Assembly: GCA_040776965.1 (NCBI GenBank)
Contig: JAXGZO010000001.1
Location: 593,419 to 657,418 of the forward strand
Direction of reading: 5' to 3'
Length of the DNA: 64,000 bases
From: Thermoleophilia bacterium
Lineage (GTDB): Bacteria; Actinomycetota; Thermoleophilia; UBA2241
The notes under the pieces are model-generated. The model made no database searches. It had not been told where the DNA came from and worked only from the letters and a program-made list of their open reading frames with translations. Positions 41,816-61,352 of this stretch are shown piece by piece; the stretch's first letter is position 1, and each line of letters begins with the position of its first letter. A program made the translations under genes and the position numbers.

Positions 41816-41892
<77 letters not shown>

Positions 41893-41929: not shown

Positions 41930-43024
41930 CTACCGCCGCGTGCGACCGCCCGCTCCGTCGCCCACACTGCGCCCCTGCGAGGCGAGCAGCGCGAGGAGGC
42001 TCTCGTTGATGGCGTCGGCGGTCTCGTGGGCGGCGGCCTTCTGCGGGTAGATTTCGTACTTCGCTCGCTCCGGTGCGGGGGTGAGGTTGGGCATGATCAC
42101 GTTGGCGCCGCGAAGGAGGCCGTGAGTCCTGCCCGTACTCCGCTTAAGCAGCGAGAGCGCCGTGGTGGCCGGGAGGTTCGCGTCGGGGCGCACGAGGCGG
42201 GTGAGCGCGATGACCTTGCAGGTCGCGAGCTCGGTGTTAGGCGCCTGGTCGGCGGGCCAGTCGTCGCTCGCGGTGCGGCGTGCGAACTCGTGGCCGAGCG
42301 GCGTATCGGGGTGGGGGAGGTAGGGGCCGATGCCGATCATGTCCATGTCGGTGCTGCGGAAGAGCTCGATGTCGTCGGCGATGGAGGCGTAGGTTTGGCC
42401 GGGGAGGCCGACCATGATGCCGGTCCCCGTCTCGTAGCCGAGCTCCTGAAGGCGGGCGAGGATCGCGAGGCGGTCGCTCACGCGCCCCGGGAGGTCGGGG
42501 TGGATGCGGCGGTAGAGCTGCTCGTCGGAGGTCTCGAAACGCAGGAGGTAGCGGTCGGCGCCGGCCTCACGCCAGAGTGAGAGGTCGGCGTCTGAGCGCT
42601 CGCCAAGGCTGAGGGTGACGGCGAGCTCCGTCTCCTGGCGGAGGCGCCGCACGACGCGGGCGACCCAGTCGGCGGCGAGGCCGTAGTCCTCGCCGGCTTG
42701 GAGCACTACGGTGCCGTACTTGTACGCGCGTGCGCGGTGCGCGCACGCGAGGATGTCGTCGGCGGACATGCGGTAGCGCTCGACCGCGCGGTTGCCCGCC
42801 CGGATGCCGCAGTACGCGCAGCGCCGCACGCAGTGGTTTGAGATCTCGATGAGCCCGCGGAGGTGCACCGCGTCGCCCACGGTGCGGCGGCGTGTGTCGT
42901 CGGCCGCCCGCCAGAGCTGCTCAAGGCGGGTTTCGTCGCGCTCGCGGAGCCAGCGCTCGATCTCCTCGTGGGTGAGGGCGTCGCCGACGCCGATGGCCGG
43001 GCTCGCCTGCGGTCGCCCGGTCAT
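41930..43024 (-). CDS. hydE: [FeFe]-hydrogenase maturase HydE (radical SAM)
   Basis: CVRRCAYCG radical-SAM cluster in a biotin-synthase-like fold. ATG at 43024 overlaps the hydF stop (ATGA). Confidence 0.9.
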   Translation of the reverse strand: MTGRPQASPAIGVGDALTHEEIERWLRERDETRLEQLWRAADDTRRRTVGDAVHLRGLIEISNHCVRRCAYCGIRAGNRAVERYRMSADDILACAHRARAYKYGTVVLQAGEDYGLAADWVARVVRRLRQETELAVTLSLGERSDADLSLWREAGADRYLLRFETSDEQLYRRIHPDLPGRVSDRLAILARLQELGYETGTGIMVGLPGQTYASIADDIELFRSTDMDMIGIGPYLPHPDTPLGHEFARRTASDDWPADQAPNTELATCKVIALTRLVRPDANLPATTALSLLKRSTGRTHGLLRGANVIMPNLTPAPERAKYEIYPQKAAAHETADAINESLLALLASQGRSVGDGAGGRTRR

Positions 43025-44322
43025 CAGCACGGATCGCTTGCCGGCGCGTCGCCTGCGGTCGCCGCCGGCGAGCGGCCGGAGCGCCCCTCGCCCGCCGCGT
43101 GCATCGCCGCGAGGGCCGCCGGGAAGGGCTCGAGCGCTCGCTCGAGGATGCCGAGGCTGAAGGCGATCACGAGGCCGTAGTTGGTGAGGGGTACGCCGGC
43201 TTGTTTGCAGCGCAACACCCTGCGGAGCATCGCCTTGCGGTTAAAGGTGCAGCCGCCGCAGTGCACGATGAGGTCCCACTGTGAGGGGTCCTCGGGGAAG
43301 TCGTGGCCCTGCACGTGCTCTATTTCGAGCTCGCCGCCGACGTACTGCGCGAGCCACCGCGGGATCTTGACGCGTCCGATGTCCTCGGCGATGGGGTGGT
43401 GGCTGCAAGCCTCGGCGATGAGCACGCGGGAGCCCGGCTTGAGGTTGTCGATCGCGAGCGCGCCCTCCACCTGGCTCGTGAGGTCTCCCTTAAAGCGGCT
43501 GAAGAGGATGCTGAAGCTGGTGAGGGGGACCCCCGCCGGGGTGGCGGCCGCGACCTCCTCGAAGGCCTGCGAGTCGGTGATGACCAGCTTGGGCGGGCCC
43601 GTGAGCTGCGCCAGCGCGTAGTGCAGGTCGCGGTCCTTAACCATGAGCGCCAGGGCGTCGTTGTCGATGAGGTCGCGGATCGACTGCACCTGGGGGAGGA
43701 TCAGCCGGCCGCGCGGTGCCTCTTTGTCGATGGGCACCACGAGGACGGCGAGGTCGCCGGGGGCCACGAGGTCGCCGAGGATCGTGGGGTTGTCGATAAA
43801 GTCCGCGGGGGTGCTGTCGAGTAGCGCTTGGCGGAACTCGAGCACCCCTTTGCCCTCGGCGGCGACGGTGGAGACGGGCGTGAGCCCGAGCTCTTGCAGG
43901 CGGGGTATCGGCGGCGGCTGCGTTACCACGTCCGCCTTGTTGGCCACGACGACCGCGGGGATACCGCGCTCCTGGAACTCGTCGAGGATGCCGTCTTCGT
44001 ACGCCCCCCAGGTGCCCGCCTCGGTGACGAGGACGCCGAGATCCGTGCGGTCGAAGACCTGCAGGGTGCGCCGCGCGCGGAGCTCTCCGAGCGCGCCGAC
44101 ATCGTCGATGCCGGCGGTGTCGATAAAGAGCACCGGGCCGAGGGGGAGCAGCTCCATCGGCTTCTCCACCGGGTCGGTGGTGGTGCCGGCGAAGTCGGAG
44201 ACGATGGAGACCTGTTGGCGTGTGATGGCGTTAAGCAGGCTGCTTTTGCCCACGTTGCGACGGCCGAAGAGGCCGATGTGAAGCCGCATCCCCCGCGGCG
44301 TATCCATGAGGCCCGGTTGCAT
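43024..44322 (-). CDS. hydF: [FeFe]-hydrogenase maturation GTPase HydF (alternative starts at 44307 or 44289)
   Basis: G1 GRRNVGKSS, the G3/G4 motifs, and the C-terminal CxH...HCGGC cluster-binding motif. Confidence 0.9.
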   Translation of the reverse strand: MQPGLMDTPRGMRLHIGLFGRRNVGKSSLLNAITRQQVSIVSDFAGTTTDPVEKPMELLPLGPVLFIDTAGIDDVGALGELRARRTLQVFDRTDLGVLVTEAGTWGAYEDGILDEFQERGIPAVVVANKADVVTQPPPIPRLQELGLTPVSTVAAEGKGVLEFRQALLDSTPADFIDNPTILGDLVAPGDLAVLVVPIDKEAPRGRLILPQVQSIRDLIDNDALALMVKDRDLHYALAQLTGPPKLVITDSQAFEEVAAATPAGVPLTSFSILFSRFKGDLTSQVEGALAIDNLKPGSRVLIAEACSHHPIAEDIGRVKIPRWLAQYVGGELEIEHVQGHDFPEDPSQWDLIVHCGGCTFNRKAMLRRVLRCKQAGVPLTNYGLVIAFSLGILERALEPFPAALAAMHAAGEGRSGRSPAATAGDAPASDPC

Positions 44323-44617: not shown

Positions 44618-46021
44618 TTAGCAGAGCACGTCGCGTTGTCCGGAGCGGACGCGGTCGACCATCTTCTGGGTGTGGGCGGCGCGCACGGAGTCCATCTCGC
44701 CGATCTTGTGCGCGATAAGGCGTTCGCCGACCTCGCGCGTCTCGGGATCGCCGTAGTCGAGTAGGTACTCGAGGAAGGTGCTGATGGCGTTGGGGTCGCA
44801 GTGGTGCTTAATGTCGCCCGGCTTGGCGAGATCCATAAAGTCCATGCCGGTGCGGCCGAGCCGGTAGCACGCCGTGCAGAAGGAGGGGACGTAGCCGAGC
44901 TCCGCGATGTCGTGGATGACCTCGTTGAGCGAGCGGTGGTCGCCCAGTTGGAACTGGGCGGCGTCGAACCGCTCGTCCTCCTCGTACCCGCCGGGGTTGG
45001 TGCGGCTGCCGGCGGAGATCTGGCTGACGCCGAGGGCGAAGGTCTCCCGGCGGATGTTCGCCGTCTCGCGGGTGCTCATGATGAGGCCCGTGTAGGGCAC
45101 GGCGAGCCGGAGGATCGCGACGATCTTGCGGAAGTCGACGTCGCTCACCGGCTGCGGCGGTTCGCTCGCCATCTCCGAGCCGGAGGCCGGCTCGAGGCGC
45201 GGCACGCTGATCGTGTGTGGGCCCACGCCGTAGGCGCGCTCGAGCTCGCGGATGTGCTGCATCATGGCGAGGATCTCGAAGCGCCAGTCGAAGAGGCCGA
45301 AGAGGACGCCGATGCCGACGTCGTCGATGCCCGCCTCCATGGCGCGGTGCATACCGGTGACGCGCCAGTCGTAGTTGCGCTTCTTGCCGCCGAGGTGGAC
45401 GTTGCCGTAGGTGCCGCGGTGGTACGTCTCCTGGAAGAGCTGGAAGGTGCCGATGCCGGTGGCCTTGAGCTCTTTGAAGTCCGCCACCGAGAGCGGCGCG
45501 ATGTTGACGTTAACGCGGCGGATCTCGCCGTTGTCGCGCTTTACATCGTAAATGGTCTCGATGGCGTCGAGGACGTACTGGAACCCCTGCTTGGGGTAGG
45601 ACTCCCCGGCGACGAGCAGCACGCGCTTGTGGCCTTCGTCCACGAGCACCTCGATCTCGCTGCGGATCTCCTCCTGCGTGAGCGCGCGCCGCTGGAGCTC
45701 CTTGTTGCGCGCGCGGAAGGCGCAGTAGAGGCAGTCGTTAGAGCAGAGGTTGCTGATGTAGAGCGGGGCGAAGAGCACGAGTCGCGCCCCGTAGATCGCG
45801 TCTTTGACGTCGCGGGCGGCGGCGAAGAGCTCGGCGAGGAGCTCCGGGTCGCTGATGGAGGTGAGGATGGCGACCTCGTCCATCTCCAGGCCGCCCAGCT
45901 CGCGTGCCTTCGCGAGGATCTCGCGCACGAGCCCCGCATCTTTCTTAGTCGCCGCCTCGAGGGCTTCGGCGACGCGGCTTTCGTCGATGAATGAACCGGA
46001 TTCGGCGGGTTCGGTCTCCAT
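44618..46021 (-). CDS. hydG: [FeFe]-hydrogenase maturase HydG (radical SAM tyrosine lyase)
   Basis: N-terminal CSNDCLYC and C-terminal CTACYRLGRTGMDFMDLAKPGDIKHHCDPN (CX2CX22C). RBS GAAGGAG. Confidence 0.92.
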   Translation of the reverse strand: METEPAESGSFIDESRVAEALEAATKKDAGLVREILAKARELGGLEMDEVAILTSISDPELLAELFAAARDVKDAIYGARLVLFAPLYISNLCSNDCLYCAFRARNKELQRRALTQEEIRSEIEVLVDEGHKRVLLVAGESYPKQGFQYVLDAIETIYDVKRDNGEIRRVNVNIAPLSVADFKELKATGIGTFQLFQETYHRGTYGNVHLGGKKRNYDWRVTGMHRAMEAGIDDVGIGVLFGLFDWRFEILAMMQHIRELERAYGVGPHTISVPRLEPASGSEMASEPPQPVSDVDFRKIVAILRLAVPYTGLIMSTRETANIRRETFALGVSQISAGSRTNPGGYEEDERFDAAQFQLGDHRSLNEVIHDIAELGYVPSFCTACYRLGRTGMDFMDLAKPGDIKHHCDPNAISTFLEYLLDYGDPETREVGERLIAHKIGEMDSVRAAHTQKMVDRVRSGQRDVLC

Positions 46022-46112: not shown

Positions 46113-47885
46113 CTAGACGGTCTGCTTCTCGGTGTAGTTGGTGTGGAGCAGTTCGTGTGAGATGTGGCCGCACGGTGCCCCGAGGTACTCCTCGTAGAGC
46201 TTGGCGACGGCCGGGTTTTCGTGTGACTTGCGCAGCTCGCGGCCCTCGTCCTCGCGGAAGATCGCCGCCGTGCGGGCCAGGCGAACCTCGTCGGTCGTGA
46301 AGCGCGGCTGGCCGCCGCCGCCGATGCAGCCACCGGGGCAGGTCATGATCTCGATGAAGTGGTACTCCGCCTCGCCGGCTTTGACCTGCTCGATGACCTT
46401 CTGTGCGTTGACGAGGCCGTGGGCCACGGCGACCTTGAGCTCCGCGCCCTCGAGGAAGGCCCAGTCGCCCTTCGCCCCCTCGATCTTAACCGACGCGGTC
46501 TTGACGCCGTCGAGGCCGGCGATGGGCTCGACGTGGAGGTTGGGGAAGGGGAACGGCACCTGGGTGACGATCTCCCACGCCGTGCGCAGGGCCGCCTCCA
46601 TAACGCCGCCGGAGTTGGCGAAGATGTCGGCGGCGCCGGTGCTGATGCCCAACGGCGCGTCCATCTCCTCGTCGGGGAGGTTGCGGAAGTCGATGCCCGC
46701 CTGCTTGATGAGCGTGCCGAGCTCGCGGGTGGTGAGCACGATGTCCACGTCGCGGGCGCCGCTGTCGTTCATCTCCGGGCGCGCCGCCTCGAACTTCTTG
46801 GCGGTGCAGGGCATGATCGAGACGACCACCATATCTTGCGGCTCCACGCCGATCTTCTTGGCGTAGTACGTCTTGGCGACGGCCCCGAACATCTGCTGCG
46901 GCGACTTGCAGGTGGAGAGGCAGTCGAGCATGTCGGGGTTGAAGTGCTCCATGTAGTTGATCCAGCCGGGGGAGCAGCTGGAGAATTGCGGGAGCGCGAC
47001 CTTCTCGCCGTCGACCAGGGCCTTCTTGAGGCGCAGGAGGAGCTCCGTGCCCTCCTCCATAATGGTGAGGTCGGCCGAGAAGTTGGTGTCGAACACGGCG
47101 TCGAAGCCGAGGCGCCGCAGGGCGGCGGTCATCTTGCCGGTCACGAGCGTGCCCGGCTCGTAGTCGAAGCACTCGCCGAGCGCGGCGCGGATGGCCGGCG
47201 CGGTCTGCACCACGACCGTCTTGGTGGGGTCTTCGAGTGCCGCCCAGACCTGGTCGATCTGGCTGCGCTCCGTGATGGCGCCCACGGGGCAGACGGCCGC
47301 GCACTGGCCGCACTGCACGCAGACCACGTCGCTGAGGTTTTGGGAGAAGGCCGGGCCGATCACGGTGGTGAAGCCGCGGCCCTGCGCGAAGAGCGCGCCG
47401 ACCCCTTGGACCTCGTTGCAGACGGTGACGCAGCGGCGGCAGGCGACGCATTTGCCGGTGTCGCGTACGAGCGCCGGCGTGCTGGCCTCGACCACTTTGC
47501 GGGTCCTCTCGCCCTCGTAGGGGATCTCCTTGACCCCGAGGGTGGCGGCGAGGCTGCGGAGCTCGCAGTCCTCCGAGCGGTCGCACACTTGGCAGTCGCC
47601 GTCGTGCTCCGAGAGGAGGAGCTCGACCACGGTGCGGCGGCCGTTGCGTGCTCTGGCGCTGTTGGTTTTAACGACCATACCGTCGGTGGCGGGCTGGCTG
47701 CACGAGGCGACCAGCGTGCGGGCGCCCTCGACCTCGACGAGACAGACCCGGCACGCGCCGATGCATTGAAGGTCTTCGAGGTAGCAGAGGGTGGGGATGT
47801 GGATCCCCGCTTGGCGAGCGGCCTGGAGCACCGTAGCGCCCTCAGGGACCTCGACCTTGATGTTGTCAATGGTGAGGATTGGCAT
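46113..47885 (-). CDS. hydA: [FeFe]-hydrogenase catalytic subunit HydA (N-terminal 2Fe-2S + His-ligated 4Fe-4S + 2x4Fe-4S ferredoxin domains + H-cluster domain)
   Basis: H-cluster motifs MPCTAKKFE (L2) and EIMTCPGGCIGGGGQP (L3). The L1 motif reads FSSCSPGW instead of the canonical FTSCCPxW. Confidence 0.92.
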   Translation of the reverse strand: MPILTIDNIKVEVPEGATVLQAARQAGIHIPTLCYLEDLQCIGACRVCLVEVEGARTLVASCSQPATDGMVVKTNSARARNGRRTVVELLLSEHDGDCQVCDRSEDCELRSLAATLGVKEIPYEGERTRKVVEASTPALVRDTGKCVACRRCVTVCNEVQGVGALFAQGRGFTTVIGPAFSQNLSDVVCVQCGQCAAVCPVGAITERSQIDQVWAALEDPTKTVVVQTAPAIRAALGECFDYEPGTLVTGKMTAALRRLGFDAVFDTNFSADLTIMEEGTELLLRLKKALVDGEKVALPQFSSCSPGWINYMEHFNPDMLDCLSTCKSPQQMFGAVAKTYYAKKIGVEPQDMVVVSIMPCTAKKFEAARPEMNDSGARDVDIVLTTRELGTLIKQAGIDFRNLPDEEMDAPLGISTGAADIFANSGGVMEAALRTAWEIVTQVPFPFPNLHVEPIAGLDGVKTASVKIEGAKGDWAFLEGAELKVAVAHGLVNAQKVIEQVKAGEAEYHFIEIMTCPGGCIGGGGQPRFTTDEVRLARTAAIFREDEGRELRKSHENPAVAKLYEEYLGAPCGHISHELLHTNYTEKQTV

Positions 47886-47902: not shown

Positions 47903-50900
47903 TTACGAGCAATACTTGCCGTAGTCGCAACGCAGGCAGCGTTTCGCCTCGGCCACGGCGACGGGGGCGGCCCAGCAGAGCTCGACCTCGTCGAAGGACG
48001 AGACGCGCTGCTCGCGGGGCAGCTCCTCGACCGCCGCGCGGTTGTACTCGACCGGGTCGGCGTCGGGGTCGTAGGAGGTTTGCACCTCGGTCTCACGGCG
48101 CCAGAAGGCGTGATTGGCGCCGGTGAGGTATTCGTCGATCGAGGCGGCCGCTCGTTCGCCGGCCCCGATGGCCTCGACGACCGAGGAGGGGCCGGTGGCC
48201 GCATCGCCGCCGGCGAAGAGCCAGTCCGCGGAGGTACGGCCCGTCTGGCGGTCGGTGACGAAGTAGCCGCGGCGGTCGAGCTCGACATCGCAGTCGCCCG
48301 TGAGCGGATCTGCGTCGAGCCACTGGCCGATTGCCGCGATGACGGTGTCGGCCTCCACCACGAACGAGGGGTTCGCGCTGGCGACCGGGCGGCGACGGCC
48401 GCTCTTGTCGTAGTCGCCGAGGGTCATCTCGTTGCAGCGAACGCCGATGACGTTGCCGTCGGCGTCGCGGAGGATCTCCTCCGGCGCCGTGAGCGTGAGC
48501 ACCTGGATGCCCTCGAGGTCGGCGGCGTCGACCTCCTCCGCCCACGCCGGCATCTCCACCCGCGTGCGGCGGTAGAGGATGCGTACCTCCTCGGCACCGA
48601 GACGCAGGGCGGTACGGGCGGCGTCGATAGCCGCGTTGCCGCCGCCGATAACCGCGACCTTTTTGCCCATCGGAGCGGAGCCCGTGAGGTTGTACTGCTT
48701 GAGGAAGGAGAGCCCGTCGTACACGCCGGGGCCGTCCTCGCCGGGGACGCCGATCGTGCTGCCCTGCGGGGCGCCGACCGCGAGGAAGACGGCCTCGTAG
48801 CCGTCGGCCTTGAGGCTCTCGAGCGAGAAGTCGCGCCCGAGCGCCTTGCCGAGCTCGATCGTGGTGCCCATGCGCTCGATCATCTCGATCTCGCGCTCAA
48901 GCTCGTTGCGGGGCAGGCGGTACGCCGGGATGGCTTGAACGAGCATGCCGCCGGCTTTGTCCTCCGCCTCGAAGATCGTCGGCTTATAGCCGAGTCGGGC
49001 GAGGAAGAAGGCGCAGCTCAGGCCGGCGGGGCCGCCGCCGATAATGGCAACCTTACGGGCGGCGTTCGCCTCGTTCTCGATGACGTCGGGGAGAAGCGCC
49101 TCTTGCTCCTGCTCCACCATGAAGCGCTTGACGTGGCGAATGGCGACGGCCGAGTCGATCCCGGCGCGTTGACACTTGCTCTCGCAGGGGTGGAAGCACA
49201 CGCGGGCGCAGATGCTGGCCAACGGGTTGCGGTTGCGGTGGACCCTGAGGGCCTCGTCGTACCGCTCCTCGCCGACCAGCGAGACGAAGGCCGGGATGTT
49301 GACGCTCGCCGGACAGGCGTTGTTGCAGCGGGCCAAGAACATGGAGGCGCAGACGCCGGCCTCGCAGTACTTGTCGCGGATGTGGGCCTCGTACTCGTGG
49401 CGGAAGTGGCGGATCGTCGAGAGGACCGGGTTCGGGGCGGTTTGACCGAGGCCGCAGAGGGCGGTCTCTTGAATGGCCTCGCCGAGCGCGATGAGGCGCT
49501 CTATGTCGCCCTCCTCGCCCTTGCCGTTGGTGATGCGCTCGATGATCTCGAGCATCCGCTTGGTGCCGACACGGCAGGGCGGGCACTTGCCGCAGCTCTC
49601 CTCCTGGGTGAACTCCAGGAAGAAGCGGGCGATGTCGACCATGCAGGTGTCTTCGTCCATGACGATGATGCCCCCGGAGCCCATAATGGCGCCGAGCTCC
49701 TGCAGGGTTGCGTAGTCGACGGGTACGTTGAGGTGCTCCCTCGGGATGCACCCGCCAGAGGGGCCACCGAGCTGGGCGGCTTTGTAGCTCTTGCCGTCTG
49801 GAATGCCGCCGCCGACCTCGTAGATGAGCTCGCCGAGCTGCATGCCGATCGGGACCTCCACGAGGCCCGTGTGCTGCACGTTGCCGCCGAGCGCGAAGAC
49901 CTTCGTGCCCTTACTCTTCTCGGTGCCGGTGCTCGCGTACCACTCGGCGCCCTTGAGGATGATGGGCGCGATGTTGGCGAACGTCTCGACGTTATTGAGT
50001 ACGCTGGGCTTGCCCCAGAGGCCCGAGACGGCCGGGAACGGCGGGCGCGGGCGGGGCTCGCCGCGATGGCCCTCAATAGAGGTCATCAGCGCGGTCTCCT
50101 CGCCGCAGACGAAGGCGCCGGAGCCCATGCGGATCTCGAGGTCGAAGCTAAAGCCGCTGCCCATGATGTCGTCGCCGAGCAGGCCGTACTCGCGCGCCTG
50201 CCCGAGGGCGTGCTCGAGGCGCTCAACGGCGAGCGGGTACTCGGCGCGCACGTACACGTAGCCCTGATGAGCGCCGATCGCGTAGGCGCCGATCGTCATG
50301 CCCTCGATCAGCGAGTGCGGGTCGCCCTCGAGAACCGAGCGGTCCATGAAGGCGCCAGGGTCGCCTTCATCGGCGTTGCAGAGGATGTACTTAACCTCGC
50401 TGTCCTGCTGCTGGGTGAACTTCCACTTGAGGCCGGCGGGGAATCCGGCGCCGCCGCGGCCGCGCAGGCCGCTCGCGAGGACCTCCTCAACCACGTCGGT
50501 GGGGGACATCTCGGTGAGCGCCTTGGCGAGCGCCTGGTAGCCCTCCCGGGCGATGTACTCGTCGATGTTCAGCGGGTTAATGACGCCGGAGTTGCGGAGC
50601 ACGATCTTGACCTGGCGGTTGAAGAACGGGATGTCGTCCATCTCGGCCTGGGTCTTCTCGGTGCCCGGCGCGTGGCTCACGAGGCGCTCGACGATCCGGC
50701 CCTTGAGGAGGTGCTCCTCGACGATCTCCGGCACATCGTCCACGCTGATAGTTTGGTAAAAAACGCCATCGGGGTAGATAAGGGCGACCGGACCCTGGAC
50801 GCACGGACCAAGGCAGCCGGTCTCGATAACTTCGATTTCGTCGGAGAGGCCGCGCTTCGCGAGCTCGGCGCGGACGGCCTTGCTCAGCTCCAGCGCGCCG

Positions 50901-50956
50901 GAGGCGATGCAACCGCCGCCGGTGCAGATCAAAAAGTGACTTCTCACATCAGCCAT
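47903..50956 (-). CDS. hydB: HydB (NuoF-like flavoprotein subunit) fused to a C-terminal GltD/NfnB-like NAD(P)H:FAD oxidoreductase module (1017 aa)
   Basis: N-terminal thioredoxin-like 2Fe-2S, then the NuoF core (GLRGRGGAGFP, CGKCPPCRVGT), then 2x[4Fe-4S], then two Rossmann motifs (VAIIGGGPAGLSCA; VAVIGGGNAAIDAA). Confidence 0.9.
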   Translation of the reverse strand: MADVRSHFLICTGGGCIASGALELSKAVRAELAKRGLSDEIEVIETGCLGPCVQGPVALIYPDGVFYQTISVDDVPEIVEEHLLKGRIVERLVSHAPGTEKTQAEMDDIPFFNRQVKIVLRNSGVINPLNIDEYIAREGYQALAKALTEMSPTDVVEEVLASGLRGRGGAGFPAGLKWKFTQQQDSEVKYILCNADEGDPGAFMDRSVLEGDPHSLIEGMTIGAYAIGAHQGYVYVRAEYPLAVERLEHALGQAREYGLLGDDIMGSGFSFDLEIRMGSGAFVCGEETALMTSIEGHRGEPRPRPPFPAVSGLWGKPSVLNNVETFANIAPIILKGAEWYASTGTEKSKGTKVFALGGNVQHTGLVEVPIGMQLGELIYEVGGGIPDGKSYKAAQLGGPSGGCIPREHLNVPVDYATLQELGAIMGSGGIIVMDEDTCMVDIARFFLEFTQEESCGKCPPCRVGTKRMLEIIERITNGKGEEGDIERLIALGEAIQETALCGLGQTAPNPVLSTIRHFRHEYEAHIRDKYCEAGVCASMFLARCNNACPASVNIPAFVSLVGEERYDEALRVHRNRNPLASICARVCFHPCESKCQRAGIDSAVAIRHVKRFMVEQEQEALLPDVIENEANAARKVAIIGGGPAGLSCAFFLARLGYKPTIFEAEDKAGGMLVQAIPAYRLPRNELEREIEMIERMGTTIELGKALGRDFSLESLKADGYEAVFLAVGAPQGSTIGVPGEDGPGVYDGLSFLKQYNLTGSAPMGKKVAVIGGGNAAIDAARTALRLGAEEVRILYRRTRVEMPAWAEEVDAADLEGIQVLTLTAPEEILRDADGNVIGVRCNEMTLGDYDKSGRRRPVASANPSFVVEADTVIAAIGQWLDADPLTGDCDVELDRRGYFVTDRQTGRTSADWLFAGGDAATGPSSVVEAIGAGERAAASIDEYLTGANHAFWRRETEVQTSYDPDADPVEYNRAAVEELPREQRVSSFDEVELCWAAPVAVAEAKRCLRCDYGKYCS

Positions 50957-50972
50957 GTCGCTTCACCTATTC

Positions 50973-51344
50973 TCAGGTCTTGATCAGGTAGTCGTCGACG
51001 GGGGAGCCGCCCACGAGGTGGGTTTCGACGATAGCGTGGACCTTAGCTTTGTCGAGGAGGCCGTAGCGATACGTGGTGCCGTCGGCCATCGTGATAGTCG
51101 CCATCGGCTCCTGCTCGCAGAGGCCGGCGCAGCCGCTCTGATGGAGGCTTACCGAGGAGGCGTCGGCGGCGGCGAGCTCGGTTATAAAGGTGGCGACGAT
51201 CTCGCGTGCGCCGGCCGCGATGCCGCACGTGCCCATGTGCACGGTCACCTGAACGTCTTTGCGGCCACCCCGTAGATCGATGTCGGCTTTTGCCTTTTCG
51301 GCGAGTGCCCTGAGCTGCTCGGGGCTCGTGATTTTATCGGCCAT
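50973..51344 (-). CDS. Small thioredoxin-like [2Fe-2S] ferredoxin (HndB-like hydrogenase subunit)
   Basis: 123-aa protein with four Cys (CGIAAG...CAGLCEQEP) in a hydrogenase operon context. Confidence 0.7.
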   Translation of the reverse strand: MADKITSPEQLRALAEKAKADIDLRGGRKDVQVTVHMGTCGIAAGAREIVATFITELAAADASSVSLHQSGCAGLCEQEPMATITMADGTTYRYGLLDKAKVHAIVETHLVGGSPVDDYLIKT

Positions 51345-51346
51345 GG

Positions 51347-51883
51347 TTACGCGCTCCTTTCGGCCGGGGTCGCCACGTCGGTGTACTGAGCGATGATCTC
51401 GTTAACTCGCTTTGGCTTGACGCGGTGGTGGACGTCCTCGTCGACCATGATGACCGGCGCGAGGCCGCAGGCGCCGAAGCAGCGGCCGATCTCAAGGGAG
51501 AACTCGAGATCGTCGGTTGTGCCGCCAACGTCGATGCCGAGGTCTTTTTTAAAGGCCTCGAGGACGGCGACGCCGCCCCTTACGTAGCACGCCGTGCCGA
51601 GGCAGATGCGGATGAGGTGCTTGCCGCGGGGCACCGTAGTGAAGAATGAGTAGAAGCCGACGACGCCGGCGACCTCGCTGTACGGTTTGCGGAGCTTCTT
51701 GGCGATGTGCTTGAGGGCGACCTCCGGCAGGTAGCCGAAGATACCCTGGGCGAGCTGCAGCACGGGGATGAGTGCTCCCGGCTTGTCACGATACTCGTCG
51801 ATGACCGCGTCGAGTCGTGCCAGGAGCTCCTCCTCGGTGAGCTCTTCGGCGCAGCACGCGCACGATTTCACCTGTTCAGTCAT
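51347..51883 (-). CDS. hydC: NuoE-like [2Fe-2S] subunit of the hydrogenase (HydC/HndA)
   Basis: Signature CLGTACYVRGG...CFGACGLAPV. Confidence 0.9.
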   Translation of the reverse strand: MTEQVKSCACCAEELTEEELLARLDAVIDEYRDKPGALIPVLQLAQGIFGYLPEVALKHIAKKLRKPYSEVAGVVGFYSFFTTVPRGKHLIRICLGTACYVRGGVAVLEAFKKDLGIDVGGTTDDLEFSLEIGRCFGACGLAPVIMVDEDVHHRVKPKRVNEIIAQYTDVATPAERSA

Positions 51884-51933: not shown

Positions 51934-52428
51934 TTAGGGCAGCGCTTGCTGGTAGGCGACGAGTGCCGGGAGCTTGGCGGGCAGCTCGCTGCTACGCAGG
52001 CTCGTCAGCTCGTCGTCGTTGCGGAGTGAGATGCGGAACTCCACCTCGGGGTGAGTGGCCACCACGACGAGAAGGCTGGTGGCCACATCGCCGAGCGGTG
52101 GACGGTCGACGTTGTTAAGGCTCATATGGACGCGCACGGATGCACCGCCGAGCTCCTCGGAGCGGCCGAGTGCGAGTCCGCCACCGCTCGCCTCGGCCGC
52201 TTGTCGAAAGAGGCTGAGGCCGAGGCCGGTTTTTTTGGTCGGTTTCGTCGTGAAGAAGGGGTTGAGGGCCTCGCTGGGCTGCACCGGAAGGCCCGGCCCG
52301 TTGTCGTCGATAGCCATAGTGAGGCTGTCGCTGGCGTGATCGGCCGCGATGTCGACGGCGATGATCGTCGCTCCGGCGCGGAGCGAGTTCTCGAGAATAT
52401 CGAGGAGGTAGAGCGAGAGATCATGCAT
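51934..52428 (-). CDS. Stand-alone histidine-kinase-like ATPase (HATPase_c) protein
   Basis: N-box/G-box-like DDNGPGLP and GLGLS motifs. No HisKA/DHp domain or phospho-acceptor His region. Confidence 0.75.
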   Translation of the reverse strand: MHDLSLYLLDILENSLRAGATIIAVDIAADHASDSLTMAIDDNGPGLPVQPSEALNPFFTTKPTKKTGLGLSLFRQAAEASGGGLALGRSEELGGASVRVHMSLNNVDRPPLGDVATSLLVVVATHPEVEFRISLRNDDELTSLRSSELPAKLPALVAYQQALP

Positions 52429-53161
52429 CGTCGACGCTCCTGCCGTGCTCGCCGCGCAGTGCGGCGGCGAGCTCCGTGAACGACGGATTGGCCACGTGCA
52501 GGGTGGTGCGTACGGCGCCGATATCGCTGAGGTAATGAGCGTCTGATGAGTGCAGGATCGGCAGGCCGTGGATGCGGAACTCCTCCTCGGCGGGGGAGCC
52601 GGGCGCGATGTGGCGGGAGAGCTCTACGGCGTCGAAGCCCGCGTCTGTTGGGAAGAAGCCGAGCTGGCCGATGGCGCCGAACGTTTTGCGGTCGATATGC
52701 GCGGCGACCGCGAGGCCGCTGTGACGGTGGATGAGCGCTGCCGTGTCGTTGATGTCGAGGAGGGTGGCCATCGCGAGGGCCTTCTCCTCTGTGGCGAGGA
52801 GCTCGCCGGCGGCGCTGAGGACCGACTGGGTGCCGAAGAACGCCTCGTAGCCGTCGTCGACGGGCGGTAGCGACGCCCCCGCCTCCGCGGCCGCCGCCTC
52901 CGCCGCCTCCGCGGTGGGGAAGAGGCCGACGACGTGGCACTCCTCGGCCGAGGTGATCTCCATGCCGGCGAGCACGACGAGGTAGTCGCCGGCCGCCTCT
53001 TGCACGGCAGCGACGTTGCGCGCACTGTTGTGGTCGCAGATCGCGATCATCCCGAGGCCTTCAGCCAGCGCTCGCTCGACGATAGCCGCCGGGGTCATAC
53101 TCTCGTCCGCGCAGGGTGAGAGCGCCGTGTGAATATGGAGATCGGCGAAACAGTGGTTCAC
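52421..53161 (-). CDS. PHP-domain protein (hydrogenase-operon associated)
   Basis: Motifs DLHIHTALSPC, ICDHN and HSSDAHY. Confidence 0.8.
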   Translation of the reverse strand: MNHCFADLHIHTALSPCADESMTPAAIVERALAEGLGMIAICDHNSARNVAAVQEAAGDYLVVLAGMEITSAEECHVVGLFPTAEAAEAAAAEAGASLPPVDDGYEAFFGTQSVLSAAGELLATEEKALAMATLLDINDTAALIHRHSGLAVAAHIDRKTFGAIGQLGFFPTDAGFDAVELSRHIAPGSPAEEEFRIHGLPILHSSDAHYLSDIGAVRTTLHVANPSFTELAAALRGEHGRSVDDA

Positions 53162-53508
53162 ACATGGCTTCCTTTGACGCCGAGTTCGTAGAGGCGGCCG
53201 ACGGTGGTGAACGTATCGCAGGGTGAGATGTAGAGCTTAATACCTACGGAGCGCGCCTTAGCGACGACGTCGTCTTCCGGCTGGCGGCCGCTCGCGAAGA
53301 CGACGGCCGCGAGGTTGGCGTGGCTGGCCACCGCGATCACGTTGAGGTGCACCTGCAAGGTGACGAGGACGCCACCCTTGGGGCCGTGGGCGAGGACGTC
53401 GCTTAAGAGGTCGGAGGCGTAACCCTGCGTGATCTCGGCGTCGCCGCCGGCGAGCTCCGGGGTGAGCTCCGTGAGGGTCAGTTCGTTGGCGAGGTACTCG
53501 AGATTCAT
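53158..53508 (-). CDS. DRTGG-domain protein
   Basis: 116-aa protein in a hydrogenase operon context, consistent with the DRTGG family. The assignment is by pattern only. Confidence 0.6.
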   Translation of the reverse strand: MNLEYLANELTLTELTPELAGGDAEITQGYASDLLSDVLAHGPKGGVLVTLQVHLNVIAVASHANLAAVVFASGRQPEDDVVAKARSVGIKLYISPCDTFTTVGRLYELGVKGSHV

Positions 53509-54266
53509 AGGGGGATCTCCTTTAGGGGACGCTCCAGCGCCGAGCAGACCTCATAGTTCTCGCAGAGATCGAGTGCGTTGAGGGACTCGAGTGCGACGGC
53601 GTTCTCTCCGTCGTCGTCGACGTGGGAGAAGAAGACGGCGGACTCGAGCGCGGCGATGATATCGATGTACTCGACGAAGATGTCGTCGGGAAGGTGGAGG
53701 GGGATGGGCGAGAAACTCACGATGCTCTTAATGCCGGCGCCGACGAGCGCCTCTGCGGCGCTCTGCGCCGCCGATGCCGGAAGCGCTAGGACCGCTGTCT
53801 CAATGCCCGAGTCGTGCACGACCTCCTCGAGCGCGGAGGTGTGGAAGCAGGGGCAGCCGTGGAGAGAGGAGCCGACAACCGCCGGGTTGGTGTCGAAGGC
53901 GGCGGTGATAGACGCGGAGGAGAGCGTCGTTGAGGCGTGTGCGAGGATAGCCCGCCCGAGGTTGCCGACGCCGACCAACGCGATACGGTGCTGCTGCTCG
54001 TCGTCGAGGAACGCGCTCATGCTCGTGATGCACGCGGCGACGCCGTACCCCTTGCTGGGGCTGCCCGAATACCCGATAACCATGAGGTCGCGACGGACCT
54101 GAGCCGCGCTCACCGCCGCGTGCCGCGCGAGCTCGTGGGAGTAAACATGGGCGGTGCCTTCCTCGCGGAGGGCGAGCAAGATGCGGCGGTAGCGACTTAT
54201 GCGAGAAACAGTCTTTCTGGATACCACCGCAGCTCCTGAATCGGCGAGGGGATCGCAAGAGAGCAC
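53505..54266 (-). CDS. rex: Redox-sensing transcriptional repressor Rex (start possibly at an internal GTG giving VVSRKTVSRISRY...)
   Basis: Winged-helix N-terminus (SRYRRILLAL) and NADH-binding Rossmann (IALVGVGNLGRAI). Confidence 0.85.
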   Translation of the reverse strand: MLSCDPLADSGAAVVSRKTVSRISRYRRILLALREEGTAHVYSHELARHAAVSAAQVRRDLMVIGYSGSPSKGYGVAACITSMSAFLDDEQQHRIALVGVGNLGRAILAHASTTLSSASITAAFDTNPAVVGSSLHGCPCFHTSALEEVVHDSGIETAVLALPASAAQSAAEALVGAGIKSIVSFSPIPLHLPDDIFVEYIDIIAALESAVFFSHVDDDGENAVALESLNALDLCENYEVCSALERPLKEIPL

Positions 54267-54270
54267 ACGC

Positions 54271-54286
54271 TGTGAAATTCATCACG
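54271..54286 (+). promoter_or_regulatory. Candidate Rex operator half-palindrome TGTGAAATTCATCACG just upstream of rex
   Basis: Matches 10 of 12 defined positions of TGTGAA-N4-TTCACA. Confidence 0.3.
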
Positions 54287-54349
54287 ATTATCGCTGTCGC
54301 GCTCTCGTGGTGTCAAATGCGGGCGTTGCCTTTTCGAGCGGTACAATGA

Positions 54350-55771
<1,422 letters not shown>

Positions 55772-57345: not shown

Positions 57346-58632
57346 ATGAAAGTAAATATGGAAAAAAATACCATTAGAAAATACCATCGAATTGAATTAC
57401 CAGCAAAAGTAAGAATAAATGAAAAATGGCATAATGTAAAAGATTGGTCTCTTGGTGGATTCATGGTAATGGATGTCACCGATGTTTTTGAAAAAGAGAT
57501 AAATTATGACGTAAAGCTTCTATTGCCATTTGATAGCGTAGAGATAGTAGTAGATGTTACAGCTAAAGTAGCTTGGTCGAGAAATGACAGAGCTGGGTTT
57601 TCTTTTGTAAACCTTAGCTCGAAAGCTAAGAATATACTAAAGACTTATCTAAAGGATAGCATAGAGGGAAATCTAGGTGAAATAGACGGTGTTTTAGCGT
57701 ATGTAGATGCACAAGAAATACCACTCCCTATAGAAACTCCAATGACCTCTAATGAAGAGATAGATTTTCAGAGGTCGTTCTATAAAAGAAGCATTCGCTA
57801 CATTATTATAGCATTGGCAGTAGTTGCAATTGCACTAATTATTGTGTTCTCAACTATGACAAGAGCGACAAGTTTAAGGGCAGTAGTATCATCAGCAAAA
57901 GTCAACGTAGATGCTCCATTTGATGGAATGGTAACAAATATATATGTTAAAAGTGGAGACTCTGTAAAAAAGAATCAAATTTTAGCCATATTAGATAATG
58001 GTGATATAAAGAGAAGCGTGGAAACACAGCGATATGCGGTTTTAGCTTCAGAGAAAGAGCTACATGAAGCAAAAGCATTACTAAGAATGGCTAAAAATGG
58101 TAAGTATGTATACAGTAAATATTCTGCAAGCGCAAGTTTATCAATTCTTAATTCAGAAGTTGGAGTTAAGGCTCAGAAGCTCAATGAGGAAAAATCTAGA
58201 TTACGAGAGCTTCTCAGTGAGCTCGACAAGGCAAATCTACGGAGTCCTTGTGATGGCTTTGTTTATGTCTGTAAGCCCTCTATAGGATCAAGCGTTCGCA
58301 AATACGATCAATTCTTTATACTCCAGCCTAACGAAAATGCAAATATGTACATACTTGCTCGATTTACATTTGACGCAGCTAAGGGTATTTCACCTGGAAG
58401 TACAGCAGATGTATTTATTCCATCGCTGGGTAAAAGAGTAAAGGGAACGGTTCGATCTATGGGAACCCAGGCACTTGGTGGCGCAGAGGGATCTCTTGAT
58501 TTAGAGATAAGCACACAAGAGGTTCCAGTTGCTATTGTATTGAATGACAATAGTTTGAATTTGAAAAGTGGTATCTCAGCAATAGTAGATGTAAGAACTC
58601 CAATTAAAGCAAGGTTAAAGCGCATACTGTGA
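57346..58632 (+). CDS. PilZ domain - TM - HlyD-like membrane-fusion-protein fusion (Alg44-like c-di-GMP-binding co-polymerase architecture)
   Basis: PilZ motifs R(K)xxxR (IRKYHR) and D/NxSxGG (DWSLGG). Single TM. Biotin-lipoyl-like MFP hairpins (DAPFDGMVTNIYVKSGDSV; SPCDGFVYV). Coding sequence is ~35% GC. Confidence 0.8.
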   Translation: MKVNMEKNTIRKYHRIELPAKVRINEKWHNVKDWSLGGFMVMDVTDVFEKEINYDVKLLLPFDSVEIVVDVTAKVAWSRNDRAGFSFVNLSSKAKNILKTYLKDSIEGNLGEIDGVLAYVDAQEIPLPIETPMTSNEEIDFQRSFYKRSIRYIIIALAVVAIALIIVFSTMTRATSLRAVVSSAKVNVDAPFDGMVTNIYVKSGDSVKKNQILAILDNGDIKRSVETQRYAVLASEKELHEAKALLRMAKNGKYVYSKYSASASLSILNSEVGVKAQKLNEEKSRLRELLSELDKANLRSPCDGFVYVCKPSIGSSVRKYDQFFILQPNENANMYILARFTFDAAKGISPGSTADVFIPSLGKRVKGTVRSMGTQALGGAEGSLDLEISTQEVPVAIVLNDNSLNLKSGISAIVDVRTPIKARLKRIL

Positions 58633-61352
58633 GAAAAGTTTACTGCGAATCAACTCCTAGAATATTAACGACAAAAGACGCCGTTCTAAAGTCTCTTAGA
58701 GTTACTATTCTTTATATAGCTGTTATTGCCATCTTTCTCTCTCTTATACCAGAGGAAGCTTGGTATATAAAAGGGCATAGTGGGTTGATCGTTATAGGTG
58801 TGTTCGGAATATGGCGATACTCATGGCAAGTTATTCATATTATCAGAATGCTCATTTACCGCATGAAGAGATTCCCTGTCATGCGAGAAGAGGCATGCAG
58901 GCTAGAGGATAAATATCCAAAAAGACTCTATTTCGTTATTCCATCATACTTTGAGATGCCTGAGATAGTTTTAAAGGTATTCAAATCAATTATGGATGAG
59001 TGCTCTTCTTTGCCATGCGAAATGATTTCAATAATCATGAGTGTTGGATCGCAAGAAGAAGTAAATCATATAAATAAATTTGCAATAGAGAACTACGATC
59101 TAAGAAATGTGAAAATCACGTTCATGATCCAAAAATCAGGCAAGAGAATTGCAATGGGTCATGCTCTAAGGGCTGTATCAAGGGATTTCAATAGAGTATC
59201 TCAATGGGATGAGAGCAACAAAGATGATCTAGTTGTAATGATGGATGGTGATGCAGTATTAGTGAGTGGAATACTTGAGAAAACTCTACCATTATTTAAA
59301 ATAAAACCAAATCTTGGCGTTGTTACTCCAAATAACATAGCGCTCTCAATACATCCCGATAGCATATTTCAAATCTGGTATCAGCTGAAATTTATGCAGA
59401 GAAATCATACATTTCAGTCACATAGTTTGTCGAAGAGAATTCTGACAACTACCGGAAGATTTTGTGTTTATCGTGCCCCAATTGTCGTTGATAATGAGTT
59501 TATTAAGTTCGTTGAAACAGACCATATCGATCATTGGATATTCGGGCGATTCAGGTTCCTTATGGGCGATGATAAAAGTACATGGTTTTATTGCCTAAAA
59601 GAGGGATATGAAATGCTCTATATCCCTGATGCTCATGTGCTATCAATTGAAGAGCGATCTAAGGGATTTTTTAAAACATCCATATCTCTTATGAAGAGAT
59701 GGTATGGTAATACATTAAGAAATAATAAAAGAGCAATTATGCTCGGTCCAAAAAAGATGGGATTTTTTATATGGTGGTGTCTAGTTGATCAAAGATTGAC
59801 AACATGGACACCACTTGTTGGTCTTGTAAGCTCGATAATGTTATCGATATTTATTTCTCCATATTATTTTATGTTCTATATGATTTGGGTTTTGATAACA
59901 AGACTTTTGATGTCATGGGTTTATGTTCTGCAAGGAATGCGTCTGAGGGTAGAACATATTATTATTATGATATATGTACAATGGGTTGGCTCAATTGTAA
60001 AGCTAATAACAATGTATAATTTAAAAAAGCAGTCATGGGATAAGGGAGAAAGTAGTGATTCAATTTATGAAGAATTACACGGTATCTTTCCTGTTTTCCA
60101 AAAATCCATTAGACATATGATGGTTGGGTTGAATATATTTATACTATTTATCTTTTGTGGACTATCGACGCACGCTCTTTCCGTTCCGCCACTGGCATTT
60201 TTTAAGGATTTTTTCACAATACAAGCAGCGGAGAGGCCGTCTTCTAGGGTGATAAATGCTGCTGAATTCGGAGCAGTAGGGAATGATTCAGTAGCTGACG
60301 ATGTGGCAATAAATAAAGCCATAAGATCGGTAAGCAGCGATGCGCAAACTACACTACAGTTGCCATCTGGAAGGCTTATACTTAATGCTCCAATACGTGT
60401 AAATAAAAGTAATATAACTATCGCCGGCGATAAAAATTCATCCACGATACTAGACTCTCATTTCTCCATAAAAGAAGGATCATCAGCAATAGTAGTTAGC
60501 GGAGATAAAGGTGCTAGTATCGGAAGTCTATCTGTCGACGCGAAAAAAAATGACGAAGTACTCCTGATAGATCCTCGATATAAATCTGAGAGTACATATA
60601 AAAATGCAGAGTATATATGGATCGGAACTCCAAATACAAAAGAATTTCTCGATAAAATAGGATCAAAAGAGTGGAATAGAGAATATCCGTGGCTTCGACA
60701 GACGATCGTTCAATCATATAGCATAAGCAAGGATGCTATTAAAATACTTAAACCGCTATCTTTTGACATGCCAGAAAAAGCAGAAATTTACGCTCCAAAT
60801 ATTATTAGAGGAATTACTATTAAGGATTTATCATTAACGCAAGCTGTTCCGAATATGAAAACTCAGCAAGCGAAGTCACAGTACAGAGATCTTGCATCAA
60901 AATATGCAGTTAACGGAATAAGCTTTGAGTGGGCTGCTCATTCAGCTGTTGAGAATGTTACTATTGACTACGCAGGGAGAAATCCAATATCGCTGGAGAA
61001 TTCGTACTCTGTAAATATGAAGAATCTCCACATCGATGGATCGTGGAATAAGGGAAAAGACGGTAACGGGTACGTGAGGTTTTCTCGTTCTTATTACTGC
61101 TCGATAGCTGATAGTGAGATAAAGGATATAAGACACCTGGTATTTCAGTGGAGCTCTTCTCATAATACCGTTGAGCATTGCAAGATATACGTCGATGTCA
61201 ATTTCCACGGCGGATTCAGCCACGATAACCTCGTTACCGGATGCACTATCAGCCCGCCGGACTCTCATCCCTGGGGTAGGGTCACTCGGATGAAGAAGGG
61301 CGGGTCGCACTGGGCCCCGGCGGACGGTGAGGGCAACGTGGTGAGGCGGTAG
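58629..61352 (+). CDS. Membrane GT2-family polysaccharide synthase fused to a C-terminal right-handed beta-helix (polysaccharide lyase/epimerase-like) domain
   Basis: GT2 core (DxD-like DGD, QRLTTW resembling QxxRW) flanked by TM helices. The C-terminal ~380 aa shows beta-helix repeat character (NxTIxG, VxNxTI). GTG overlaps the upstream stop. The gene is low-GC except for the last ~150 nt. Confidence 0.75.
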   Translation: MRKVYCESTPRILTTKDAVLKSLRVTILYIAVIAIFLSLIPEEAWYIKGHSGLIVIGVFGIWRYSWQVIHIIRMLIYRMKRFPVMREEACRLEDKYPKRLYFVIPSYFEMPEIVLKVFKSIMDECSSLPCEMISIIMSVGSQEEVNHINKFAIENYDLRNVKITFMIQKSGKRIAMGHALRAVSRDFNRVSQWDESNKDDLVVMMDGDAVLVSGILEKTLPLFKIKPNLGVVTPNNIALSIHPDSIFQIWYQLKFMQRNHTFQSHSLSKRILTTTGRFCVYRAPIVVDNEFIKFVETDHIDHWIFGRFRFLMGDDKSTWFYCLKEGYEMLYIPDAHVLSIEERSKGFFKTSISLMKRWYGNTLRNNKRAIMLGPKKMGFFIWWCLVDQRLTTWTPLVGLVSSIMLSIFISPYYFMFYMIWVLITRLLMSWVYVLQGMRLRVEHIIIMIYVQWVGSIVKLITMYNLKKQSWDKGESSDSIYEELHGIFPVFQKSIRHMMVGLNIFILFIFCGLSTHALSVPPLAFFKDFFTIQAAERPSSRVINAAEFGAVGNDSVADDVAINKAIRSVSSDAQTTLQLPSGRLILNAPIRVNKSNITIAGDKNSSTILDSHFSIKEGSSAIVVSGDKGASIGSLSVDAKKNDEVLLIDPRYKSESTYKNAEYIWIGTPNTKEFLDKIGSKEWNREYPWLRQTIVQSYSISKDAIKILKPLSFDMPEKAEIYAPNIIRGITIKDLSLTQAVPNMKTQQAKSQYRDLASKYAVNGISFEWAAHSAVENVTIDYAGRNPISLENSYSVNMKNLHIDGSWNKGKDGNGYVRFSRSYYCSIADSEIKDIRHLVFQWSSSHNTVEHCKIYVDVNFHGGFSHDNLVTGCTISPPDSHPWGRVTRMKKGGSHWAPADGEGNVVRR

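Follow-up and report, generated by a model that had tools for sequence, protein, structure and literature searches.

A putative Rex-controlled operon of a bifurcating-type [FeFe]-hydrogenase with DRTGG, PHP and HATPase accessory genes in a Thermoleophilia bacterium

Organization of the hydrogenase locus

This work concerns a gene string in a 64,000-nucleotide stretch of a Thermoleophilia bacterium genome (assembly GCA_040776965.1, contig JAXGZO010000001.1, positions 593,419 to 657,418; hereafter the window), in which the gene of a Rex repressor and three accessory genes precede the genes of an [FeFe]-hydrogenase. All of these genes lie on the minus strand. The first gene, rex (53505-54227), codes for an NADH/NAD+-sensing repressor of 240 amino acids (aa). 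The accessory genes follow closely: D2 (DRTGG#2; 53158-53508), encoding a DRTGG-fold protein of 116 aa, has a start that overlaps the rex stop (ATGA), the gene of a PHP-family metal-dependent phosphoesterase (52421-53161; 246 aa) has a start that overlaps the D2 stop (GTGA), and the gene of a stand-alone GHKL (Bergerat-fold) HATPase (51934-52428; 164 aa) overlaps the PHP gene by 8 nt. The three genes are probably translationally coupled, and a gap of 50 nt separates the last of them from hydC. The initial annotation, made from the sequence alone, had described four genes of the same strand, overlapping or abutting, upstream of hydC, and both the profile matches and the coordinates agree with this description.

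The structural genes of the hydrogenase are hydC for the NuoE-like [2Fe-2S] subunit (51347-51883; 2Fe-2S_thioredx, 161 bits), a gene (fd) for a small thioredoxin-like [2Fe-2S] ferredoxin in the hydD position (50973-51344; found by profile searches), hydB (47903-50956; 1017 aa), with a NuoF-like flavin mononucleotide (FMN)/NADH module and a C-terminal GltD/NfnB-like module, and hydA for the bifurcating-type catalytic subunit (46113-47885; NCBIfam group A6, 877 bits). The best solved relative of HydA was Acetobacterium woodii HydA1 (7Q4V; 633 bits), with which the MPC and CPGGC motifs align. An apparent change in the active site of HydA (SSCSPGW vs TSCCP) was considered and dropped, since the active A. 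woodii HydA1 shares SCSPGW. With the H-cluster and N-terminal Fe-S domains of HydA, a NuoF-like HydB and a NuoE-like HydC, all parts of the HydABC architecture were found. Judged by their sequences, the hydABC genes are of the electron-bifurcating [FeFe]-hydrogenase type, and bifurcating activity is predicted.

Three H-cluster maturase genes come next, namely hydG (44618-46021) and hydF (43024-44322), assigned by equivalog matches (TIGR03955 and TIGR03918 for the pair), and hydE (41930-43030), assigned by its relation to the radical SAM (rSAM) protein HydE. A terminator scan of the minus strand gave no terminator-like site between 54300 and 41500, and the only element that Rfam and inverted-repeat scans of the region revealed was a tRNA gene after hydE (41818-41891). 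The operon probably runs from rex through the DRTGG, PHP and HATPase genes, hydC, fd and hydB to hydA and takes in hydGFE as well.

Rex and its operator

The Rex protein scored 183.6 bits against NCBIfam NF003995 (cut-off 126) and matched the Pfam families Put_DNA-bind_N (PF06971) and CoA_binding (PF02629); the winged-helix and Rossmann domains of the family are both present, with the hidden Markov model score above the cut-off. It aligned over its full length to the solved Rex structures 3KEO and 2VT2, with 3KEO over residues 3-201 including the GVGNLG dinucleotide-binding motif. While the listed open reading frame (ORF) starts at 54266, an in-frame GTG at 54227 was taken as the start of rex because AGGAG precedes it at a spacing of 5 nt, because all rex orthologues begin (M/V)VSRKTV at this position and because a record with the exact sequence of the 240-aa product exists.

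Upstream of rex, a consensus scan found TTGACA-N18-GATAAT (54316-54287), an 11/12 match and the sole strong promoter on the minus strand in 13.5 kb. Its -35 hexamer TTGACA (54311-54316) coincides with a column conserved across 17 orthologous upstream regions. The -10 hexamer GATAAT (54287-54292), supported by the scan and by the alignment, ends on the first base of a Rex operator, TCGTGATGAATTTCACAG (54270-54287, minus strand). This operator begins 60 bp upstream of the rex start codon and overlaps the end of the -10 hexamer and the predicted transcription start. The initial annotation had proposed a Rex operator half-palindrome here; the site was retained, but it proved to be a full 18-bp imperfect palindrome (54270-54287) and not a half. 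Of the 14 positions of TTGTGAA-N4-TTCACAA it matches 11, among them the GTGA-N6-TCAC core, so a conserved cognate operator is found at the target promoter. Lying across the -10 end and the predicted transcription start, the site has the classical geometry of repression.

The operator has three mismatches to TTGTGAANNNNTTCACAA, and there is no other such match in the GC-rich 57 kb of the window. Two further matches in the window were dropped as chance occurrences, both lying inside an AT-rich island. In related loci (denoted by L and a number; the genome scan is described below), a similar box occurs 57-97 bp upstream of rex in 21 of 23 rex-led cases, with one other match in their approximately 350 kb. 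When 17 upstream regions were aligned, the conserved columns were the -35 hexamer, the -10 hexamer and the GTGA and TCAC half-sites, with conservation highest in the half-sites.

Two further features were observed around this operator. A glutamate dehydrogenase gene (gdh; 54359-55771, plus strand) is divergent from rex, and the rex promoter and Rex box fall into its upstream region; Rex might also affect gdh. This divergent neighbour is not kept in the relatives, and L004 has an aminotransferase there. Moreover, most Thermoleophilia rex-led operons carry a second palindrome, GTT(C/T)GTT-CTGT-AACGAAC, at a distance of 1 nt on the downstream side of the Rex box; it was seen at L004:6252-6269 and in 11 further loci (among them L010:4256, L012:4254 and L018:4252). 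Neither the window nor L033, the two loci without a kinase/sensor gene, has this palindrome, which may serve a second regulator as its operator or form a hairpin in the 5' untranslated region.

The three accessory proteins

The HATPase matched HATPase_c with 48 bits over residues 4-104. Profile searches with its 164 aa found no HisKA or dimerization and histidine phosphotransfer (DHp) domain, in line with the initial annotation, which had described the protein as lacking a phospho-acceptor domain. As the DHp/HisKA domain is missing, the protein is not a histidine kinase in the usual sense. In 48 diverse homologues, N14, D42-x-G44-x-G46, G70, G83, G95, P111 and G113 are invariant, while P57, F58, T60, G68, L69 and D108 are at least 90% conserved, and all of these residues are present in the window protein. 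The N box, the G1 box (DxGxG), the F box region and a GxxGxG-like G2 box of the GHKL family were all recognized. A structural model (predicted local distance difference test score, pLDDT, 88) shows a complete Bergerat fold, with the C-terminal 60 residues modelled as an extension of the Bergerat sheet. According to this model, the protein would be nearer to GHL ATPases (MutL, GyrB) than to kinases.

D2 scored 22.3 bits against the Pfam family DRTGG (PF07085), below the gathering threshold of 25.2; some homologues in its 90% clusters carry a precomputed PF07085 match, and the three-dimensional fold of D2 is that of DRTGG. It also resembles the N-domain of HPr kinase and the N-terminal domains of MurE/MurF, the latter of which bind UDP. 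Conservation of at least 94% was found for D33-x-x-S36-D37 as well as for T50, Q52, H54 and N56. The D-x-x-S-D motif is common to D2 and D1 (DRTGG#1), a paralogue encoded in related loci, and is invariant in both, with the conserved serine of D2 at the N-terminus of a helix.

The PHP protein exceeded the Pfam cut-offs for PHP (PF02811; 27.6 vs 26.4 bits) and PHP_C (29.2 vs 21.3 bits). Its metal ligands H9, H11, D43, H44, E68, H155, D207 and H209 are invariant in 24-66 orthologues and complete in the window protein; the HxH, D/H, E, H and DxH motifs of the family are thus all in place, and phosphoesterase activity is predicted. The family profile matched RNase AM (7UG9), Endonuclease Q (EndoQ), a Bifidobacterium phosphoesterase and a 3',5'-bisphosphate (pAp) nucleotidase, with 3E0F and the pAp phosphatase 2YB1 among the nearest solved relatives, and gave no match to protein phosphatases. 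As the closest relatives of known structure have nucleotides or nucleic acids as substrates, the enzyme may be of a nucleotide type, which we treat as a lead only. Within the motif HxHTxLSPC, C17 is invariant, and C42 in CDHN is nearly so; at the C17 position, other PHP enzymes usually have SDG. The two cysteines could form an unusual metal site or a redox-sensitive site.

In all three families, every invariant residue is kept in the window proteins. Natural fusions were also seen in several independent assemblies, namely PHP-HATPase proteins of 395-438 aa (e.g. in Phycisphaerae) and a HATPase-HydC protein of 358 aa (Thermoleophilia); the fusion proteins P0124, P0160 and P0175 represent clusters of 4-6 members.

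Distribution of the accessory cassette

The HATPase family comprises 939 clusters at 50% identity (E <= 1e-10). Species-representative genomes were scanned with an alignment of 11 HATPase sequences, the 48-sequence alignment being too divergent, and this gave 80 loci in Thermoleophilia, Planctomycetota, Spirochaetota, Hydrogenedentota, Acidobacteriota, Syntrophales, Aminicenantes, Bipolaricaulota, Cloacimonadales, a Firmicutes metagenome-assembled genome (MAG) and others. The window proteins and two proteins of L004 were mapped onto these loci by tblastn, and all counts were made over the 61 loci with enough flank; homologues of Thermotoga and Clostridium were taken from papers.

The usual gene order is D1, an RsbW-like HATPase_c_2 kinase, D2, PHP, HATPase, hydC, fd, hydB and hydA. 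D2 was found at 60 of the 61 loci, PHP and the kinase at 54 each and D1 at 45, and rex leads the string at 18. Fusion of the RsbW-like kinase to 4Fe-4S, Fe_hyd_lg_C and PF04060 FeS modules (about 520 aa) is frequent, and the fusion to the hydrogenase-like domain was counted at 33 loci. Found in many phyla, this five-part cassette appears to be ancient. The earlier statement that such accessory genes recur beside bifurcating-hydrogenase genes is therefore well founded, with the same string at 61 loci and reports in the literature (PMC3561251, PMC4694547). Equivalent accessory genes were recorded in Caldanaerobacter, Thermotoga and Clostridium (PMC3561251), and 'sensory' group D/M2e hydrogenase genes were described upstream of trimeric bifurcating hydrogenases, with kinase genes between (Carere 2012, PMC3561251). 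The accessory cassette of 'group D / M2e sensory hydrogenase' and kinase genes is attributed to Calusinska 2010 as that work is cited in Carere 2012 (PMC3561251). The gene tte0891 lies between hydC and fd, and Tte0891 is presented merely as a hypothetical protein encoded within the operon (PMC4694547). Full-text literature searches returned no functional study of the DRTGG or PHP partners of hydrogenases.

The composition of the full cassette brings a phospho-switch to mind, in which the HATPase would act as a kinase on S36 in the D-x-x-S-D motif of D2, PHP would be the matching phosphatase, and the state of the DRTGG protein would control the hydrogenase, or Rex where DRTGG is fused to it. 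PHP enzymes of the CpsB/YwqE type are protein phosphatases, the motif is invariant in both DRTGG paralogues, an RsbW/SpoIIAB-type HATPase_c_2 domain is encoded between the two DRTGG genes, and the HATPase matches the catalytic and ATP-binding (CA) domains of kinases. In addition, Rex-DRTGG fusions would offer a direct route to transcriptional output. However, DRTGG differs in fold from STAS domains, the matches of the PHP profile are RNase AM, EndoQ and the pAp phosphatase and not protein phosphatases, and the serine at the helix N-terminus reads equally well as a site of phosphate or ligand binding. As the window is also without the RsbW-like kinase, we regard the phospho-switch as unlikely.

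The position of the HATPase gene varies between loci, and it was found between hydC and fd in L049, L063 and L064. This location among the structural genes, which is also that in Firmicutes, is one of several observations favouring a role in assembly or maintenance. Here, the trio of D2, PHP and HATPase would not be a regulator but an ATP-dependent helper, with the GHKL protein as a tiny Hsp90/MutL-type clamp, which inserts or repairs flavin or Fe-S in HydC or HydB. The linkage to hydC is tight and near-universal, HATPase-HydC fusions exist, GHL ATPases are the nearest match to the HATPase fold, a nucleotide cofactor precursor could be a substrate of PHP, and the trio was kept in the window despite the loss of the sensor half. 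On the other hand, active HydABC has been produced and purified without accessory proteins, the HATPase has neither the N-terminal strap nor the transducer domain used by GHL ATPases, and some loci are without PHP or without both PHP and D2 (L058, L062, L064 and L073). The co-occurring sensory hydrogenase-like kinase points to signalling instead, and although tte0891 was included in a synthetic operon, no evidence of its requirement was found there (PMC4694547). An assembly or maintenance function is accordingly judged improbable, somewhat more so than the phospho-switch.

In the window, D2-PHP-HATPase lies directly upstream of hydC and is co-oriented with it, while D1 and the kinase/sensor were absent from the whole 64 kb when searched by tblastn with the L004 proteins. 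D2 directly follows rex, and among the rex-led loci only this one is without D1 and kinase. The initial annotation had called the accessory set 'unusually complete', a statement that has to be withdrawn in view of the 45/61 and 54/61 relatives that carry D1 and the RsbW-like kinase/sensor, respectively. Since two independent Logan read-set assemblies (L001, L002) show the same junctions, the arrangement is not a mis-assembly. By this comparison, the window operon is a reduced version of the cassette, of which the hydC-proximal half remains.

D1 follows Rex in 18 of 18 scored rex-led loci. In seven translated loci of the Thermoleophilia type it forms a C-terminal fusion with Rex, and in L069 (Myxococcota) rex is a separate gene of 210 aa. 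The fused proteins have 346-383 aa and a C-terminal DRTGG-like domain with the invariant D-x-x-S-D (L004:6306-7349; L007, L010, L016, L017, L033 and L045), an architecture of which no description was found in the literature searched. The window Rex ends in a non-conserved tail of about 38 aa where its closest relatives carry the DRTGG domain. A deletion scar of DRTGG#1 in this tail was sought by local alignment to three Rex-DRTGG proteins, and the result was no better than for shuffled controls. With no scar statistically supported, the loss of DRTGG#1 is inferred from the distribution among relatives only.

The relative with the most similar promoter is L033 (Thermoleophilia MAG AnMBR.bin210, L033:6910-15785). 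It encodes Rex-D1 followed by a truncated HATPase (residues 18-116 only), is without kinase, D2 and PHP, and has hydG after hydA, as in the window. The differing reductions in L033 and the window suggest repeated erosion of the cassette in a small-genome lineage. In the extreme case, the three accessory genes would be relics that lost their function and began to decay once the sensor/kinase and the Rex-fused DRTGG had been deleted, so that only Rex control would still matter. The status of the window as the sole rex-led locus without D1 and kinase, the different reduction of its close relative (truncated HATPase, no D2 or PHP) and the apparently small genome, with the same proteins on a 1.66-Mb contig, are compatible with decay. 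Nevertheless, the three genes have intact ORFs with overlapping start and stop codons and keep every family-invariant residue; furthermore, D2-PHP-HATPase without a detectable kinase is also found in other phyla (L025), and this half-cassette may be a stable working unit. That the trio is merely a relic is thus the least probable of the explanations considered, and we give it very little weight.

HydB and the flanking region

HydB combines Complex1_51K and NADH_4Fe-4S modules with Fer4_20 and Pyr_redox_2 modules (NF009410, 484 bits). This long form was found at 44 of the 61 related loci, in many phyla. Its C-terminal module is reminiscent of StnA, the separate NfnB-like subunit of the Stn transhydrogenase (PMC7483475, PMC10482914), which hints that NADP(H) may be an extra partner of the hydrogenase.

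The G+C content of the window is approximately 65% up to about 57.3 kb and falls sharply to 35-37% between about 57300 and 61500. This AT-rich island holds a gene for a PilZ-domain protein with a barrel-sandwich domain like that of resistance-nodulation-division (RND) adaptors (57346-58632) and a gene for a 907-aa glycosyltransferase/pectate-lyase-fold protein (58629-61352). The island is real, because the same junction is present on an independent Logan contig (L001), and it was probably acquired horizontally.

Proposed regulation

The explanation we prefer joins transcriptional control by Rex with a second control layer exerted by the trio, and as a whole we assign it a probability of roughly 0.6. 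The two parts differ in strength. It is very probable that a single promoter with an overlapping Rex operator heads the operon, that accumulating NADH releases Rex and derepresses the operon, and that autoregulation sharpens the response. Following the established mechanism of Rex, the repressor would sit on the operator at low NADH/NAD+ and block initiation. When NADH accumulates, Rex would leave the DNA, and rex, the three accessory genes, the hydrogenase and probably the maturases would be derepressed. The hydrogenase, oxidizing NADH and ferredoxin, would then dispose of excess reductant as H2. As rex is the first gene of the operon, Rex is expected to be autoregulated, and this negative autoregulation would sharpen the response.

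The second part, that the trio is an ATP- or nucleotide-dependent modulator acting on the enzyme through HydC, is put forward tentatively and has the odds somewhat against it. It is proposed because the motifs are intact, the genes overlap, the adjacency to hydC is constant, fusions occur and the folds are of nucleotide types. The GHKL protein would serve as an ATP-binding switch that docks at HydC, the DRTGG protein would bind a nucleotide or a phosphorylated ligand, and PHP would hydrolyse a nucleotide-type phosphoester. The trio would thereby act after transcription and not as a classical histidine-kinase phosphorelay. The nucleotide-dependent post-translational layer suggested in the initial annotation is plausible to this extent, considering the intact ATP motifs, the nucleotide-type PHP and the HATPase-HydC fusions.

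Several points weigh against this explanation. The Rex box carries three mismatches, and the enrichment of Rex boxes that the initial annotation had looked to was not borne out when counted within the window only, where one match (<=3 mismatches) stands against 0.55 expected in the 57.3-kb GC-rich part. The box is considered non-random because of its position, abutting the -10 hexamer of an 11/12 promoter, and its conservation in related loci, not because of its count. On the side of the trio, the best sequence matches of the HATPase are histidine-kinase CA domains, so that a role as a kinase keeps some probability. The losses here and in L033 show that the cassette is dispensable, and it may be decaying. 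Finally, co-purification of accessory proteins with HydABC is not known to have been reported for Thermotoga, Caldanaerobacter, Acetobacterium or Thermoanaerobacter kivui, and any association of the trio with HydABC would therefore have to be transient.

A more far-reaching possibility is that the five-part cassette forms a signalling pathway not described so far, which responds to H2, redox state or a nucleotide and has two outputs, and that the window is a deletion variant keeping a plain Rex and the enzyme-proximal branch. At the transcriptional output, the Rex-fused DRTGG would join an H2 or Fe-S signal with NADH sensing in one repressor, and at the post-translational output, the PHP-GHKL pair would dock on HydC, as the natural fusions suggest. 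We hold this to be a doubtful reading; if it were true, the window would amount to a genetic dissection of the pathway made by nature.

In many anaerobes, biofuel strains among them, H2 yield and redox balance are set by electron-bifurcating hydrogenases. To the known cases of Rex control the locus adds one from an uncultured actinobacterial lineage, in which rex itself is part of the operon. Of greater use is the comparison across genomes, as the DRTGG-PHP-HATPase trio is among the most constant neighbours of hydC across phyla. The PHP-HATPase and HATPase-HydC fusions, the Rex-DRTGG fusions, the cysteine-bearing PHP site, the MutL/GyrB-like GHKL fold suggested by the model and the reduced variants are the leads that this comparison provides.

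Comparison with known systems

As an analogy only, the trio can be set beside RsbW/RsbV/RsbU (SpoIIAB/SpoIIAA/SpoIIE), where a GHKL-type protein, a small alpha/beta protein with an invariant serine and a metal-dependent phosphoesterase are likewise encoded together. Unlike that system, the window has no STAS domain, PP2C phosphatase or sigma factor; it has a DRTGG fold and a PHP phosphoesterase, and its HATPase is not of the HATPase_c_2 type. With the known accessory cassette, the window shares DRTGG#2, PHP and HATPase in the same order and orientation beside hydC, but it is without DRTGG#1 and without the RsbW-like kinase with its hydrogenase-like Fe-S sensor.

The organism, a GC-rich uncultured actinobacterium, has its closest relatives among Thermoleophilia MAGs. 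A further comparison is with the rex-led operons of the Thermoleophilia type (L004, L007-L012 and others), which have the same promoter architecture of TTGACA, GAGAAT or GATAAT and a Rex box. Identity to the window amounts to 62-73% for D2, PHP and HATPase and to 78-86% for the Hyd proteins. These relatives, and not the window, have the 346-383 aa Rex-DRTGG, the approximately 520-aa kinase/hydrogenase-like gene and the second palindrome. Downstream of hydA they encode a response regulator and a HydS-like histidine kinase, whereas the window has hydGFE there. In L004 (16465-20131) and at similar positions elsewhere, the response regulator is followed by the HydS-like protein (Fer4, Fe_hyd_lg_C, FeS, HisKA and HATPase domains) and then by a hybrid kinase.

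Rex control of orthologous operons has been studied in the laboratory. In Caldicellulosiruptor bescii, the five-gene operon Athe_1295-1299 has a Rex site 39 bp upstream, which was chosen for verification in vitro (PMC6391272), and the operon is listed among the experimentally determined members of the Rex regulon (PMC6391272, PMC8579813); by gene order, it should include the HATPase gene. In Clostridium thermocellum, DNA affinity purification sequencing (DAP-seq) placed a Rex peak on Clo1313_1885-1881 (PMC8457756). Together with the promoter/operator geometry and the conservation of the box, the published electrophoretic mobility shift assay (EMSA) and DAP-seq results lend good support to the NADH/NAD+-dependent Rex control of the hydrogenase proposed in the initial annotation. 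Rex control of a bifurcating [FeFe]-hydrogenase is already established in Caldicellulosiruptor and C. thermocellum, and the window is another example. Like the operons of C. bescii, C. saccharolyticus and C. thermocellum, it encodes the same HydC, small ferredoxin, HydB and HydA and a stand-alone HATPase, with a Rex box at the promoter. In those organisms, however, rex lies apart from the operon and the HATPase gene comes between hydC and fd, whereas in the window rex is the first cistron, the HATPase gene precedes hydC, and HydB carries the GltD/NfnB-like C-terminal module.

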